A stretch of DNA of 64,000 nucleotides. Source: an uncultured Planctomycetaceae bacterium. Its GTDB lineage: Bacteria > Planctomycetota > Planctomycetia > Planctomycetales > Planctomycetaceae. The notes beneath the pieces were generated by a model that worked only from the letters and a program-made list of their open reading frames with translations, searched no databases and was not told the DNA's origin. Where the stretch lies: NCBI GenBank assembly GCA_963813715.1, contig CAWFAK010000005.1, positions 224,001 to 288,000 of the forward strand. Reading direction: 5' to 3'. The position numbers and the translations under genes are program-made. This document shows, piece by piece, positions 23,396 to 42,388 of the stretch (position 1 is the stretch's first letter; each line of letters begins with the position of its first letter).

Positions 23396-23435
23396 CGGAT
23401 GGAAGAACACTTCCGGGTTGATTAAGGATTGTCCT

Positions 23436-25210
<1,775 letters not shown>

Positions 25211-25270
25211 CTGCGCCCGGCGAGCGTCGGGCGTCAGCCCGATGGTGCTCGATACCAACCCGAAGCGTGA

Positions 25271-26253
25271 CAGCTTTTTGCGCGAGGAGTCATAAAGACT
25301 TGCGCAATAAAAAGTTGGTGCTACACATAGTCTCAATCGTAACCACACGAAAGGAGACGGATGTGGAACACCAACTCTGGAAGGCGATTTTGATCCTTCT
25401 CAAACAGGCGAGCAAGCGTCGTCGGCGCACGCGAGAACGATACGGGGCAGACGACATTGTGCAGGTTTGGCTGTGGGCCGTTCTGCACGGTCGGCCTGTG
25501 TCCTGGGCGTGCGATCTTCGGAACTGGCCGCTGCATGAGCGTCGCCGCAAATTGCCATCGTCGAGCACCATGTCGAGACGACTGCGGAGTGCCGAGGTCC
25601 AGCAAATGCTGCAAGAGATCGAACGTTCTGAACTGGCTCCTCGTGGGAACAAACCCCTGTATTGGATGATCGATGGCAAGCCTCTGCCGATCGGCGGTTG
25701 CTCGAAAGACCGGCAAGCTGGGTACGGCCGCGCCGCGGGCTGCAAAGCCAAAGGGTACAAGCTACACGCGGTGGTCGGCAGCGATGGCTCGATCGCTGCC
25801 TGGCGCGTGGCTCCCATGCAAAAGGATGAGCGGGCGATGGGGCGGCGGATGTTGAAGCAAGCGGCTGTGCAAGGGTACTTGCTCGCCGATGCAAATTTCG
25901 ACTCGAACCAGTTACACGACGTCTGCCTCGAACGCGGCGTGCAACTGGTGGCACCTCCGCGTTACGGATTTGGCCGTCGCCGTGGCCATCGGCGTCAGAG
26001 TCCCGCTCGGCTGCGATCTCTTGAACTGCTCTCGAATCCGCAAAGCTCGTTCGGCCGTGCCCTCCATCAAGAACGTAACGCGATCGAACGCTACTTCGGA
26101 TACTTGAGCACTTGGAGCGCCGGATTGCAGGCACTGCCCGCTTGGGTTCGCGGCCACCGACGCGTCCACCGCTGGGTGCAAGGCAAGCTCATCTTTACCG
26201 CCTTGCGACGGCGATGCCAAAAAACGACTTACGTCACGAGATGAAAAAAGTTG
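25271..26253 (+). mobile_element. IS-1: 983-bp DDE insertion sequence in a REP-D loop
   Basis: Imperfect TIRs CAGCTTTTTGC / GAAAAAAGTTG; flanks AACCCGAAGC-GTGA | GTCA-GCGAGGGATC (4-bp TSD with one mismatch). Confidence 0.85.
25363..26244 (+). CDS. DDE transposase (DDE_Tnp_1-like; IS982/IS5-like), intact, 293 aa
   Basis: AAGGAG SD then GTG; IDGKPL, GYKLH, LADANFDS and RNAIERYF. Confidence 0.9.
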   Translation: MEHQLWKAILILLKQASKRRRRTRERYGADDIVQVWLWAVLHGRPVSWACDLRNWPLHERRRKLPSSSTMSRRLRSAEVQQMLQEIERSELAPRGNKPLYWMIDGKPLPIGGCSKDRQAGYGRAAGCKAKGYKLHAVVGSDGSIAAWRVAPMQKDERAMGRRMLKQAAVQGYLLADANFDSNQLHDVCLERGVQLVAPPRYGFGRRRGHRRQSPARLRSLELLSNPQSSFGRALHQERNAIERYFGYLSTWSAGLQALPAWVRGHRRVHRWVQGKLIFTALRRRCQKTTYVTR

Positions 26254-26294
26254 GTCAGCGAGGGATCTTCGTATTTCCTCGGTCCCAAGCTCCC

Positions 26295-27276
26295 GAGCAT
26301 TTTTCATGAATTGACGTAAGTTCGTGTCGAGGCCCGCTTGATTGCGTTGAGAATCAGCTTCGCCTGCACCCAACGGTGAACTCTTCGGTGAGTGCGGACC
26401 CAAGGCGGCAGGTGCGTGAGTCCGCCTCCCCAATTGGTCAGATTCGCGAGGGATCGTTCGATGGTGTTCCGGAGCAGCATCAGGTCTCTCGCGAATTGCG
26501 GGTTCGGATTGTCAAACAGTTCGGCGGCCCGTCTTCGTCCGAGGCTCATTTTGGGTCGTCGGGACTCACACTTGCGGCCACCACGCAAGGGCGCCACGAG
26601 TTGAAGATCACCGCGCCGGCACAAACCTCGTGAAGTGGATTGGAGTCGTAGTTGGCATCGGCCAAGAGGTAGCCCTGGATGTCGGCTGTTCGCACCATGC
26701 GACGAGCCATCACCCGCTCGTCTTTGTTCATGGGCGCGATCCGCCAGGCGGCGACAAGCCCGTCAATTCCCTGGATTAAGTGCAGTTTATAACCCCGAGC
26801 GTTGCCGCGCTGGGCACGGCCAAATCCCGCCTGACGATCGCCGCTTGCGCCGCTCACTATCAGAGGTTTTCCGTCGATGACCCAAACCAGCGGCTTGTTG
26901 TCGGAAGGCTCGAAGACTGTCTGCTCCAAGACCGTGATCAAGCCCTGAACCTCCGGGTCGCGAAGTCTTCGACTCATCGTGCTGGAGGATGGAAGCGTTC
27001 GTCGCCTTTCGTGGATCGGCCAATTCGCTTTCAAAGTCGCCCAGAAGACCGGACGGTCGTGCACAACCGCCCAAAACCAGACCGCCGATGTCCTCGACGC
27101 TGAATTTCTCCCTCGCCCGACGCCTCGGCTTGTGCATCTCCTTCAACAGTCGCCAAATCGCCTTCCAGAGTTGGTCTTCCATGACCCCCCTCCTGCTTGT
27201 ATGGAAACAACAAAGGGCATCATCGAAGCCAACTCGTTTTTACGCAAGGCCTAACGTCGGTTCATGCAAAATCCTC
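26295..27276 (-). mobile_element. IS-2: 982-bp DDE insertion sequence in a REP-C loop
   Basis: 16-bp TIRs GAGCATTTTTCATGAA / TTCATGCAAAATCCTC (14/16); TSD TCCC; empty site GGTCCCAAGC-TCCC-GCTTGGGACC. Confidence 0.92.
26304..27182 (-). CDS. DDE transposase, paralog of the IS-1 enzyme (frameshifted)
   Basis: MEDQLWKAI, LPSSSTMSRRL, IDGKPL, GYKLH, LADANYDSN and RNTIERS spread over three frames. Confidence 0.88.
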
Positions 27277-27280
27277 TCCC

Positions 27281-27381
27281 GCTTGGGACCGCAGTCAACC
27301 GAAGCTCCGCTTCGGCCAGTCCGCGTTGGAGCCGACGATCGAAGCAGGAGCTTCGAGGGGATGCGTTCCCAAGCGGAGCTT
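27281..27381. repeat. Core of a four-hairpin REP-C REPIN whose outer hairpins are split by IS-2 and IS-3
   Basis: GCTTGGGACC ... CGAAGCTCCGCTTCG ... CGAAGCAGGAGCTTCG ... CGTTCCCAAGCGGAGCTT. Confidence 0.85.
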
Positions 27382-28565
27382 GAGGGTGTCCGGGAATTGA
27401 ATTGAGCTAAACCCAAGGGCCTCCGGGCGTTTATGTTTTTTCTGCCAAGAAGAAACTAAACGCCGCAGGAGGGCCCAAGGATGGGAACTCGTGCCAAGGC
27501 CGGCACGTCGTTGGAAGCGTTGGTCAAGCTGGCGATGCCGCTTTTGAGGGAAGCCGAGCGGCAATGTCCGAGAACAGGGCCGGGAGCAAAGCCGATCATT
27601 CCGGACTGGTTCGTCGGAGTGTTGATTATGGTGGCTGTGCTGAAACGAAAGAAGACCAAGTCCGCCCAATTTCGTTTCGTAACCGACAGCGCGAACCGGC
27701 ACAGATTCGAGACCTCACCGGAGAAAAGCAGTTTCCCTCGCGAAGCACGTTTTTCAGTCGGTATCGACGCTGTCATCGGCTCTTTACGGAGGCCATCAAG
27801 CGGCAAGGGCAGCAAGCGATCGCGGAGCAGATCGTCGACGCCAGCCAGGTCGCGGTGGACAAGAGCCTGGTTCCCGCCCGAGGTCGTCCGTGGCACAAGC
27901 ACGAAAAGGAACAGGGGAAGATTCCCCGGGGTGTGGATCGCGAGGCGGCGTGGGGCTACTCCGAACATCACGGCTGGGTCTACGGCTACAGCTTCGAGGT
28001 GGTGGTCTCTTGCAAGCGGAAAAACACGGTGTTTCCGCTGCTGGCTTCGGTGGGAACCGGGAGCGCCGCGGAGGTGCGAACGTTCGCGGAAAAAATTGAC
28101 CATTTACCGCGTGAAGTGAAATGCGTCTCAGTGGATGCGCCTACGACGCAGGTTACCTCGGTGAGCGCATCGAATTTGATCAGGCAGGGCGGCGGACCGG
28201 CCGTCGCTTCTTGTGTCCCGAAAATCCCCGCTACCCTCGCAAAAAGACCAAGCGCTGCGGGGCCGACGCGGCGCAGGCCCACGGCCGCGAGCTGCGACGA
28301 GCCAGAAAGAAGTACTTCGAGAGCGCCGCCGGGCGACGCCTCTATCGACGGCGCAGCCGCACGGTCGAGCCCTTCAACAGCTGGTTGAAGTCACTCTTCG
28401 AACTGGACACGCGTGCGTGGCATCGCGGACTCGTCAACAACCAAACTCAGATCCTTGCCGCCATCTTCGTGTATCAATTGCTTGTGCGATACAACCACCG
28501 CTGCGGAAACAACAACGGACGACTTCGTTGGCTCACCGATGCCCTCTGAATTCCCGGACACCCTC
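27382..28565 (+). mobile_element. IS-3: 1184-bp DDE insertion sequence in a REP-C loop
   Basis: Perfect 17-bp TIR GAGGGTGTCCGGGAATT; 11-bp TSD AAGCGGAGCTT (27371-27381 and 28566-28576). Confidence 0.95.
27481..28549 (+). CDS. DDE transposase (IS4/IS5-like; frameshifted)
   Basis: VAVDKS, DREAAWG, WVYGY, AYDAG and RSRTVEPFN across ORFs 27481, 27564 and 28121. Confidence 0.85.
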
Positions 28566-28614
28566 AAGCGGAGCTTGGGAACGAGGAAAGTGCGACCTGC
28601 ATCCCCGCGAGGGA

Positions 28615-29136
28615 TCACTGCGGTCGGTCTGTCCGCGCCAACTGCTCGACTGCATTCTTGCGCAGAATTGGGTCATCGGACTGTGTCAGCCGCTCCAGCT
28701 TCGCGTTGGTCAGACTGCACGGCAGGTTTCCAAGCCCCCAGATTGCCTTTACCGCCAGCGCCCTCGCCTCGTCATAGTCAAGGTACTCGGGAATCCACTG
28801 AGTCGCGAGAAACAGAGCATCAACTGCGGCGGGGGTCCGCAAGTCGTCTAACGCACTAACCACGTCTTCATGAGACGCATGCCAATCTTCGTCGACCAAT
28901 GGGCAGAGAGTCTGAACTTGTTCGGGACGAAAGCCAAACACAAAACCAACGATCAGCGCGCATAACAAATCATCAGCGTCCCGCGCCGCGCACGCTTGTT
29001 CGAGGAGGTGCGAAGCGACTTTGCCCTGCTCCACAGCAGATGGAAAGCGCTGGAGAAAATCTTCGCTGGAAATCCTGCAAGTGCCGTCGGGCTGGGTAAC
29101 GAGGCCCCAACAAAGCTCTCGTTCCTCGTCAGTCAT
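28615..29136 (-). CDS. HEAT-like helical orphan protein, immunity-like
   Basis: WHASHEDVVSAL ... LAVKAIWGLG; lower GC than its flanks. Confidence 0.65.
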   Translation of the reverse strand: MTDEERELCWGLVTQPDGTCRISSEDFLQRFPSAVEQGKVASHLLEQACAARDADDLLCALIVGFVFGFRPEQVQTLCPLVDEDWHASHEDVVSALDDLRTPAAVDALFLATQWIPEYLDYDEARALAVKAIWGLGNLPCSLTNAKLERLTQSDDPILRKNAVEQLARTDRPQ

Positions 29137-29296
29137 TCGCGGCTTCCTATCGTCGCTCGGCATCGTCGAAGCCGCGTAGCTCCAGATCCTGAGCACTGCC
29201 ATCAAGCCAACACAGCCCAAATCCACAACGAGTCTCGAACAAAGCTGCGGGGGAGCCATAAAGCGGCCCGGCCGAGCCGTCTGACGCCCGCCCTAG

Positions 29297-41625: not shown

Positions 41626-42388
41626 GGGTGGCACTGGCGGCTCGTCCGCCAGTGGACTTTTTCATTGCGACAATAGTGCGTGGTTGGTCACTGCCCTCGA
41701 TGGCAAGCGCCGGCAATGGGTGACGATCACAAGCGACTGAAGCATTTCCACTCACCAGGGGACCTTCACGAGCTCACGTTTTCTTGCAACGGTCGCCGCC
41801 CATTGCTCGCTGACGAATCGACTTGCAAGCTCCTCTGTCAGAGCATCGATCAGGCAATGAGTCGCCATCGGCATCGGCTCATCGCGTTTGTGCTCATGCC
41901 GGAGCACGTGCATCTCTTGGTGCTTCCCACCTCGATCGAGTGCGACATTGCCGGTTTGCTGTTTTCAATCAAGAGACCGTTCTCGTATCGCGTGAAGCAG
42001 TACTACGAAGCAACGCGAAGCGACTTGCGATCCGGACTGGTCGTGCGCGAGCGCGCAGGAAAGTCCGCGTTTCGCTTTTGGCAAGAAGGAGCCGGCTACG
42101 ATCGCAATCTTTTCGAGCCCCAATCGGTTCTCGCGGCGATCGATTACATCCATCTGAATCCGGTGCGACGGGGCTTGGTTACTCGAGCCAAAGATTGGAA
42201 GTGGTCGAGCTGTCGGTGGTATCTGAGCGATCGACGAGACGTTGATCCCGACTTGCCCACAATCCACGGCTTGCCTGGCGAGTTGGGCTAGGGAAAAAGA
42301 CGAGTGGGGGCAAGTCGGACGAGCCGTGCGCCACGGAACTGGGATCCGCGCCAAAAGACCACTGGCGGGCAAGCCGCCAGTGCCACCC
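41626..42388. mobile_element. RAYT locus flanked by inverted REP-A copies
   Basis: REP-A at 41626-41654 and 42360-42388 brackets the Y1 transposase. Confidence 0.88.
41716..42291 (+). CDS. REP-associated tyrosine transposase (RAYT/TnpA-REP)
   Basis: LTFSC, FVLMPEHVHLL (HUH), FWQ..YDR, YIHLNPVRRGL and WKWSS. Confidence 0.92.
   Translation: MGDDHKRLKHFHSPGDLHELTFSCNGRRPLLADESTCKLLCQSIDQAMSRHRHRLIAFVLMPEHVHLLVLPTSIECDIAGLLFSIKRPFSYRVKQYYEATRSDLRSGLVVRERAGKSAFRFWQEGAGYDRNLFEPQSVLAAIDYIHLNPVRRGLVTRAKDWKWSSCRWYLSDRRDVDPDLPTIHGLPGELG

Follow-up and report, generated by a model that had tools for sequence, protein, structure and literature searches.

The stretch analysed here, called the window throughout, comprises 64,000 nucleotides (G000:C5:224001-288000) of a 7.49-Mb, 18-contig assembly, coded G000, from an uncultured soil bacterium of the Planctomycetaceae. 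Three insertion sequences (ISs), designated IS-1, IS-2 and IS-3, lie side by side in one intergenic spacer of the window, each within a short palindrome of the repetitive extragenic palindromic (REP) type and each bordered by a short target duplication. The two kinds of palindrome are referred to as REP-A and REP-B. The data presented below suggest that these ISs are specialized in such palindromes. The features of the region, in window coordinates, are the following.

23429..25210, plus strand: class II aminoacyl-tRNA synthetase gene with a GAD domain, of the aspartyl-tRNA synthetase type (Pfam tRNA-synt_2, 5e-111; GAD, 2.2e-27); its stop codon at 25210 marks the start of the intergenic spacer.
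25214..25248, no strand assigned: copy of a repeat named family D (about 35 BLAST matches in the genome; BLAST coverage profile).
25254..25270, plus strand: left half of REP-A, ACCAACCCGAAGC, with the first copy of the 4-bp duplication, GTGA (25267-25270).
25271..26253, plus strand: IS-1, 983 bp, with imperfect terminal inverted repeats.
25363-26244: IS-1 transposase gene, intact, 293 amino acids, GTG start (Pfam DDE_Tnp_1, 1.4e-12).
26254..26264, plus strand: second copy of the duplication, GTCA (one mismatch), and right half of REP-A, GCGAGGG.
26281..26294, plus strand: left arm of REP-B outer hairpin 1, GGTCCCAAGC, with the first TCCC.
26295..27276, minus strand: IS-2, 982 bp, a paralog of IS-1, with a transposase frame broken twice in the window copy.
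27277..27290, plus strand: second TCCC and right arm of hairpin 1, GCTTGGGACC.
27299..27356, no strand assigned: the two inner hairpins of the four-hairpin REP-B unit, CCGAAGC-TCC-GCTTCGG (27299-27315) and TCGAAGC-AGGA-GCTTCGA (27339-27356).
27364..27381, plus strand: left arm of outer hairpin 4, CGTTCCC, with the first copy of the 11-bp duplication, AAGCGGAGCTT.
27382..28565, plus strand: IS-3, 1184 bp, with perfect 17-bp terminal inverted repeats, GAGGGTGTCCGGGAATT.
28566..28583, plus strand: second AAGCGGAGCTT and right arm GGGAACG.
28615..29259, minus strand: downstream gene, convergent with the synthetase gene (open reading frame [ORF] with a sub-threshold HEAT_2 match only).

The coordinates, ends and duplications of the three ISs had been given in a preliminary description of this DNA and proved correct to the base. 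That description also placed IS-2 and IS-3 in the two opposite outer hairpins of a single four-hairpin unit (REPIN), and the same four-hairpin architecture is indeed present, uninterrupted, at G000:C12:6190-6330. The proposed paralogy of IS-1 and IS-2 is borne out by an identity of about 58-62% between their transposases. ORFs of the window copy of IS-2 are distributed over three frames, with the Pfam models DDE_Tnp_1 and DDE_Tnp_1_3 matching the middle piece. The IS-3 frame has two breaks in the window copy, and an intact 356-amino-acid gene is found in the copy at G000:C14:31905-33090. An Rfam scan of positions 24900-28900 gave no match at E ≤ 1.

BLAST searches of G000 recovered nine full copies of IS-1 (99.4-100% identity) and one partial copy, two copies of IS-2, and five copies of IS-3 plus one 86% variant, three of these lying at contig ends. 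All nine full copies of IS-1 are inserted between ...CCCGAAGC-N4 and N4-GCGAGGG, that is, at the same phosphodiester of an asymmetric motif, and both orientations are represented (five and four copies). The 4-nt duplication varies with the site (for instance, GTCC/GTCC on C9). Both IS-2 copies lie in CCCAAGC-N4-GCTTGGG hairpins, and the five IS-3 copies with a readable flank all lie in CCCAAGC-loop-GCTTGGG hairpins, with perfect 11-bp repeats on C5 and C14. Two IS-3 copies on C7, 7.5 kb apart and in inverted orientation, have interchanged flanks: the 12-bp sequence AAGCTCCCCCTT occurs to the left of one and to the right of its partner, as expected from an inversion between them. A fourth element, IS-3b, encodes a transposase 51% identical in amino acid sequence to that of IS-3. 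Its four copies all occupy the tip of the hairpin CACGG(C/T)TGAGC-AA-GCTCA..CCGTG within a 130-nt repeat (family C). Three of them are bordered by the 10-bp repeat GAGCAAGCTC, and the fourth (G000:C18:63135-64444) by a perfect 77-bp direct repeat that runs from one hairpin tip to the next; its start is 5' of GAGA in one hairpin, its end 3' of GCTC in the hairpin that follows within that repeat unit. Among the nine IS-1, two IS-2, five readable IS-3 and four IS-3b copies, none was found at a non-REP site; copies at such sites at background frequency would, according to the preliminary description, have spoken against its proposal. One pile-up of these elements was seen at G000:C8:41043-43846, where IS-3b is followed by a partial IS-1 (positions 482-982) and then by another IS-1 that lacks its own first 17 bases and has in their place the 17 bases found also beyond its right end.

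Multi-copy elements identified in a self-comparison of the genome served as controls. The flanks of a 1.44-kb family (eight copies) and a 1.38-kb family (five copies) are unrelated, and the numbers of copies within REP motifs were 0/8 and 0/5, respectively. A third family, of 1.5 kb and with ends GAATGGCACTAACTC..., is a further target-specific IS and a separate case of target choice: its six copies (C5:1088358-1089875, C5:443965-445482, C8:69252-70769, C17:682372-683888, C16:394037-395554 and C11:44419-45937) are all inside the GGGACGGGACACG end motif of another repeat, 1.3 kb long.

The targets of the window elements and of IS-3b have the hallmarks of REPs, being short, palindromic, present in many copies and often arranged as inverted pairs. 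The REP-A 24-mer occurs uninterrupted 36 times in G000 at ≤4 mismatches, mostly as inverted pairs about 11 nt apart; with the nine sites occupied by IS-1, this amounts to about 45 REP-A sites in 7.49 Mb. When searched at ≤1 mismatch, the motif CCCGAAGC-N4-GCGAGGG was found 54 times, and its reversed control five times. The bare core AAGC-N3-5-GCTT gave 706 matches on both strands against about 690 expected for eight fixed bases and is thus not enriched, the enrichment being confined to longer motifs. Intact family C repeats, the targets of IS-3b, are also present in G000. An empty paralogous site for IS-3 lies at C12:6203, where the hairpin that is split on C7 is intact. The neighbouring segment, C12:1-6180, is a diverged duplicate of C7:1110978-1117125, the IS junction falling exactly between TCCC and AAGC. 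Identity between the two segments is 94.6% overall and 96.8% when the IS is excluded; IS-3 terminates one of them and the 86% variant its counterpart, and C7 carries an extra 1.3 kb (1109649-1110978) relative to the C12 segment. Either the segment was duplicated or the assembly includes a second strain.

The preliminary description had called these repeats propagated by RAYTs (REP-associated tyrosine transposases), a claim that the data bear out only in part. There are eight Y1_Tnp (RAYT-like) matches in G000. Family C is found on both sides of the RAYT-like gene at C3:72420-73178, and family D (window 25214-25248) on both sides of a Y1_Tnp-like ORF at G000:C7:398229-398885 (repeat span C7:398140-399030). 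The family D repeat is common in the genus. REP-A was beside none of the eight RAYT-like genes of G000. Among four other genomes it flanks weak Y1_Tnp (RAYT-like) genes, in inverted orientation, in three (4 of 30 loci across G019, G038 and G035); in the remaining one, G052, it was beside none of the RAYT-like genes at the loci examined. For the hairpin used by IS-2 and IS-3 the association was not found: near a RAYT-like gene, REP-B is represented only by a degenerate half, close to G000:C8:601714-602280. The window itself contains a Y1_Tnp (RAYT-like) match of 27.9 bits at 41773-42024, with no REP-A, REP-B or family C motif within 1.5 kb of it.

At a threshold of E ≤ 1e-40, 7 of the 61 related genomes, G000 included, proved to encode a transposase of the IS-1 clade. 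Four other genomes have homologs, 45-59% identical, that occupy a homologous site and are bordered by 4-bp repeats. The two copies of G038 (52% identity, another family) share the site CCCTCGC-TTGC-GCTGCGGGCTAGTT and are flanked by TTGC repeats; in G019 (47%), a copy bordered by GCAA repeats interrupts ACCAACCCGACGC-GCAA-GCGTCGG, and the right end of a second adjoins TTGC-GCTTCGGG. Among species-representative genomes, a scan yielded 31 loci, every one of them in Planctomycetota (Pirellulales, Planctomycetaceae, Gemmataceae, Phycisphaerae). Ends could be assigned with confidence at 25 of them, and in 24 of these 25 a palindrome or REP half adjoins at least one IS end (at L054, on the right side only). 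The exception, L077, encodes a 40%-identical enzyme and has an AGTA repeat in non-palindromic DNA. In one genome with long contigs, all nine copies of one element lie in the variant motif CCGCGACC-GTAA-GGGAGCGG. A scan of soil metagenome contigs returned 80 loci, of which 79 were examined (L157 has no left flank); ends were found in 48 and 36 were usable. CCC-N2-3-GC-N4 stands beside both ends in 27 of the 36, beside one end in five and beside neither in four, and GC occupies positions -6/-5 in 70 and 71, respectively, of the 72 half-sites. The protein database searched contains 3410 matches to the IS-1 transposase (E ≤ 1e-10), most of which come from contigs about as long as an IS and bear only the names "hypothetical" or "DDE transposase". 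The IS-3 clade is less common: of 400 further genomes of the class, only 4 gave a match at E ≤ 1e-30, so that the wider target habits of this clade rest on few cases. One IS-3-clade relative duplicates a loop-less palindrome, AACTAGTT (8 bp), and others have palindromic flanks, including an AT-rich one. A presumptive 3-bp duplication, GCC, at L064/L011 was dropped; its right flank is the left flank of copy L080, making a hybrid more likely.

The REP-A motif has a distribution of its own. At ≤1 mismatch, it is present in 20-299 copies in 20 of the 61 related genomes, which span at least four families, against 0-6 for the reversed control. Fourteen of these 20 motif-rich genomes gave no IS-1-clade match, so the repeat does not depend on the IS. 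The IS-1 clade is present in 6 of the 20 motif-rich and 1 of the 41 motif-poor genomes, a comparison that is descriptive only, the motif-rich threshold of 20 having been set after viewing the data and the related genomes not being independent; it suggests that the IS depends on the repeat.

Soil sequence data provided an independent view of the element ends. Parts of the stretch are contained in 20 coded runs from 12 studies, and the contigs of four runs from four studies were aligned to it. Unitigs from all four terminate exactly at 25271/26253 (IS-1) and at 26295/27276 (IS-2); one unitig of run X3 consists of precisely 25271-26253. For IS-3 they terminate at 27378/28569, that is, IS-3 plus GCTT..AAGC, 4 nt outside the IS boundaries. 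Since unitigs break at the IS boundaries, the copies in those samples must differ directly outside the elements, and the IS ends are thereby fixed independently of the window. Loose ends show IS-1 followed by TCAC-GCTTCGGGTT, corresponding to the opposite orientation, and CCAAGCTCT-GCTT preceding IS-3, corresponding to a different hairpin. In all four runs, the IS-2 contigs have an extra base behind 26617, 27082 and 27085, and the IS-3 contigs behind 27700/27701 and 28136. These five places fall at the frame breaks of the window copies, which must thus be either decayed or affected by assembly indels, the elements being intact elsewhere. No contig of the four runs joins across an IS as an empty form of the window locus would. 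Two candidates for such a form were rejected: a clean joint from 27276 to 28570, seen in run X2, comes from a further copy of IS-2 within a similar hairpin, and a loose end at 25270 (X4) that reads on uninterrupted as ...GTGA-GCGAGGG... diverges after 12 bases and probably belongs to another locus.

The finding of every G000 copy in its motif, and of homologs across genera, families and classes in a homologous motif where the control ISs are not, upholds the view, already expressed in the preliminary description, that these are REP specialists. We consider it very probable that the three elements are target-specific ISs that preferentially enter the dyad of short REP-type palindromes resident in the host. 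Their stacking in a single 300-bp spacer between convergent genes would simply reflect what that spacer contained, namely one REP-A and one four-hairpin REP-B unit. It is plausible that REPs are harmless landing sites that allow the elements to persist, the "safe harbour" of the preliminary description; REPs are intergenic, and no sign of harm accompanies the occupation of 9 of about 45 REP-A sites.

A number of observations weigh against this conclusion or limit its reach. All targeting evidence comes from extant copies. The comparison with empty sites in related genomes, advocated in the preliminary description, failed to deliver: the synthetase gene was located in 11 of 11 same-genus genomes and its downstream DNA compared in five (G003, G009, G002, G006 and G010), all five of which have a different gene after the synthetase and no REP or IS in the spacer, hence no orthologous empty site for any of the three window insertions. 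Intact REP-B hairpins, which fold at -9.8 kcal/mol (z -5.6), are few, about five against seven occupied. The IS-1 duplication is imperfect in two of eight readable pairs, including the GTGA/GTCA pair of the window (one mismatch each). REP-A is a poor hairpin by itself, so that insertion into a hairpin loop, as originally proposed for all three ISs, fits the IS-1 site badly. The flanks on metagenome contigs of about 1 kb may be chimeric as a result of collapsed repeats, which makes the calls of direct versus inverted repeats (17 versus 15) unreliable. Finally, some IS-2-type copies lie in perfect palindromes with inverted, instead of direct, 4-nt (or 3-nt) flanks: TCCC..GGGA in two of four copies in G002 (L010, L028), TCCC..CGGA at G000:C7:471825-472807 (one mismatch), and TCT..GGA at two copies (L073/L074) of a 42%-identical element in another genome. 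These copies have a common polarity, with 5'-TCC(C/T) beside each IS end, whereas recombination between copies predicts both polarities. An IS-3b-type copy in G002 has inverted flanks of the same kind, GAGCAAGCTC..GAGCTTGCTC. Hybrid flanks do occur, as in the IS-3 copies on C7. Two origins considered for the inverted flanks in G002 were rejected: a double insertion followed by deletion, as the inner hairpins are still present, and a single reciprocal inversion, as both copies share the same polarity. As a separate observation, the REP and IS cluster of the window coincides with a break in synteny relative to the five same-genus genomes.

The duplications offer a view of how the site might be chosen. 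They are centred on the palindrome dyad in the window (4 bp for IS-1, 4 bp for IS-2, 11 bp for IS-3). The IS-2-like element of G002 has TCCC/TCCC in a hairpin with a 4-nt loop and CGACG/CGACG in a hairpin with a 5-nt loop. In the IS-3 clade, loops of 0, 2, 3 and 4 nt go with repeats of 8, 10, 11 and 12 bp, respectively, and one repeat measures 77 bp; the 12-bp value comes from cross-pairing the flanks on C7 and rests on the inversion postulated above. The enzymes of IS-1 and IS-2 would place the joints with the IS ends at the two borders of the short spacer that separates ...CCC-N2-3-GC from GC-N2-3-GGG..., and this spacer, the hairpin "loop", would be what becomes duplicated. With the IS-3 enzyme, the joints would lie 4 bp further out on each arm (CCC/AAGC-loop-GCTT/GGG, slashes marking the joints), so that 4+loop+4 nt, or 11 bp, are duplicated. 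Each IS end would be positioned by one arm of the palindrome acting as a half-site, with no fixed stagger, the stagger being set by the target.

As to how the arms are read, we lean, by a modest preference, toward duplex half-sites. The IS-1 site is asymmetric and folds poorly: REP-A alone gives -5.3 kcal/mol (z -2.0) with the 4 nt as a loop, and in the fold of the REP-A inverted pair (-23.4 kcal/mol, z -4.5) the same 4 nt are base-paired inside the stem. The half-sites CCCGAAGC and CCCTCGC are conserved as sequence across classes, with GC invariant by the spacer, as sequence reading predicts, and duplex half-site reading accounts for the same duplication lengths. In the foremost alternative, what the transposase recognizes is structure as opposed to base sequence, be it an extruded hairpin, a cruciform or a flexible tip that is unpaired, and the 3' ends of the IS attack a fixed structural position on a hairpin. 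This possibility, which we judge rather unlikely, draws on the duplications being equal to the loop, or to 4+loop+4, regardless of loop length; on the 77-bp repeat on C18, whose two limits fall at equivalent points in two distinct hairpins; and on the IS-3 clade, in which a common geometry is seen on the unrelated target sequences of IS-3 and IS-3b and more distant homologs duplicate AACTAGTT and an AT-rich palindrome. A model of this type has been published for an element of the IS1182 family (PMC5678879). A broader proposal, in which the ends dock on the arm or tip of a target engaged as an extruded or looped structure, the duplication is the stretch between the docking points, be it the loop, 4+loop+4 or, where two neighbouring hairpins serve, 77 bp, and the partnership with a REP motif conserved across classes of Planctomycetota is family-wide and as old as the phylum, strikes us as doubtful; if true, it would provide a natural four-enzyme system for studying how DDE transposases read DNA structure.

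Three other explanations were considered. If the repeat halves were part of the elements, as long terminal inverted repeats, removal of the interior would trivially "restore" a palindrome. The inverted-flank copies of the IS-2 and IS-3b types (TCCC..GGGA, GAGCAAGCTC..GAGCTTGCTC) do resemble extended inverted repeats, and occupied REP-B hairpins outnumber empty ones. This explanation, raised in the preliminary description as a potential objection, appears nonetheless very improbable. IS-1 is found in both orientations within its asymmetric motif; the arms beside ISs that are >99% identical differ (CGTTCCC, CGGTCCC, TGGTCCC, TTTCCC) and stand within native repeats whose inner hairpins keep their usual spacing; the duplication changes along with the site; identity drops at the IS ends from >99% to the level of the repeat; soil unitigs break at the IS ends; and intact repeats exist in G000 and, by the hundreds, in genomes that lack the IS. 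The intact REPs might conversely be footprints or miniature derivatives of the ISs. Nothing speaks directly for this idea, the co-occurrence of motif and IS (6 of 20 motif-rich versus 1 of 41 motif-poor genomes) being the nearest approach, and we give it next to no weight: intact sites have a single spacer and no IS end sequence, most motif-rich genomes (14 of 20) yielded no IS-1-clade match, and the motif flanks RAYT-like genes in inverted orientation at the 4 of 30 loci in G019, G038 and G035, a REP/RAYT signature. Random insertion with survival only in harmless repeats is scarcely credible either, for although REPs are intergenic, and in this case lie between convergent genes where insertions should be tolerated, selection cannot fix one phosphodiester of a 24-bp motif in 9/9 copies or across genera, and other IS families of G000 survive at unrelated sites.

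The transposases belong to the DDE_Tnp_1 (PF01609) group, IS-1 scoring 48.2 bits and IS-3 38.4 bits against a Pfam gathering cut-off of 23. The intact IS-3 protein matches DDE_Tnp_1 at 1.4e-9 and DDE_Tnp_1_6 at 3.5e-6. Residues D104, D176 and E242 are invariant in six aligned transposases and presumably form the catalytic triad. Scores against NCBIfam models of individual IS families all fall short of the family cut-offs: IS982 (NF033520, cut-off 130 bits), 52.2 for IS-1 and 31.2 for IS-3; IS5 (NF033580/579/581, cut-offs 110-140 bits), 37.1, 29.7 and 16.4 for IS-1; IS1182 (NF033551, cut-off 270 bits), 54.1 for IS-3, over the C-terminal part of the model only; and IS4, 21 bits against a cut-off of 115. 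Judged from these scores, IS-1 and IS-2 (about 0.98 kb, 293 amino acids) appear nearest to IS982/IS5, and IS-3 (1.18 kb, 356 amino acids) nearest to IS1182.

REP-specific ISs are already known, and the biology described here is not new in kind. In Tobes and Pareja 2006 (PMC1525189), REP targeting is reported for five IS families, IS3, IS110, IS4, IS256 and IS5; the preliminary description had rightly named the first and second, and its list was too short by the IS4 (ISRm22), IS5 and IS256 families. Of the "type 1 association" of these authors, two features are found in G000, the placement of copies in REPs and the presence elsewhere of the rebuilt site in uninterrupted form. With respect to planctomycetes, REPs and many tyrosine-transposase genes are described in R. 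baltica by Di Nocera et al. 2013 (PMC3733652). Full-text literature searches, with supplementary files outside their scope, found no description of a REP-targeting IS in this group, in agreement with the suggestion that such elements may be undescribed there. The additions made here are four elements from two DDE_Tnp_1 clades, in a new phylum and fitting no curated IS family model; a REP-A motif conserved across families and classes, which is unusual for REPs; and a natural series of palindrome-following duplication lengths that bears on whether DDE transposases read sequence or structure. Breaks in assemblies and pile-ups of ISs at REP clusters of planctomycete genomes are explained by such elements, and their transposases are candidate tools for site-specific insertion in a phylum for which few genetic tools exist.

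Among the known systems, the IS110/IS1111 elements IS621, ISPpu9, ISPpu10 and ISPa11 resemble the present ones in using one fixed REP position in all copies (PMC1525189, PMC11208160 and PMC11187229). They differ in being moved by DEDD recombinases with a bridge or seek RNA as guide and in making no classical duplication, whereas the present elements have DDE_Tnp_1 enzymes and terminal inverted repeats; nothing about them suggests a guide RNA, no search having been aimed at one. IS1397 and ISKpn1, of the IS3 family, are likewise REP-specific, inserting in enterobacterial palindromic units with a specificity that resides in the transposase (work cited in PMC1525189). Their transposase is of the rve type, encoded by two frameshifted ORFs and acting by copy-out-paste-in, and they have been tested experimentally, whereas the elements described here encode single-ORF DDE_Tnp_1 enzymes and are known from sequence. 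Insertion of IS1397 and ISKpn1 reportedly takes place in the loop, with a repeat of 3-4 bp.

Structure-targeted insertion has been described for IS1272 by Wan et al. 2017 (PMC5678879), who cite Siguier et al. for palindrome targeting in the IS1182 family, which provides the best NCBIfam match of IS-3. IS1272 shares with the present elements an inverted-repeat target, and the cruciform model set out in that paper predicts duplications of the loop alone or of the whole stem-loop, when the IS ends attack 5' of the loop or of the stem, as seen here. By the same account IS1272 deletes the stem-loop and makes no duplication, whereas IS-3 and IS-3b duplicate 8-12 bp and once 77 bp; the targets of IS1272 share no sequence, whereas IS-3 copies use one REP family; and IS-3 is far below the cut-off of the IS1182 family (54 versus 270).

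The closest counterpart is ISRm22 of Sinorhizobium meliloti 1021, an IS4-family element with a PF01609 enzyme that inserts on the axis of a REP palindrome (PMC1525189). As described there, it is like the window elements in having a DDE_Tnp_1-type transposase, all copies inside REPs, insertion on the axis and a short direct repeat; hybrid repeats in three of its nine copies were put down by Tobes and Pareja to recombination between copies. It comes from another phylum, uses another REP and has a repeat of 6 bp, as opposed to 4 bp for IS-1 and IS-2 and 11 bp for IS-3. Unlike that of ISRm22, the target described here is conserved along with the IS clade across several classes of the phylum.

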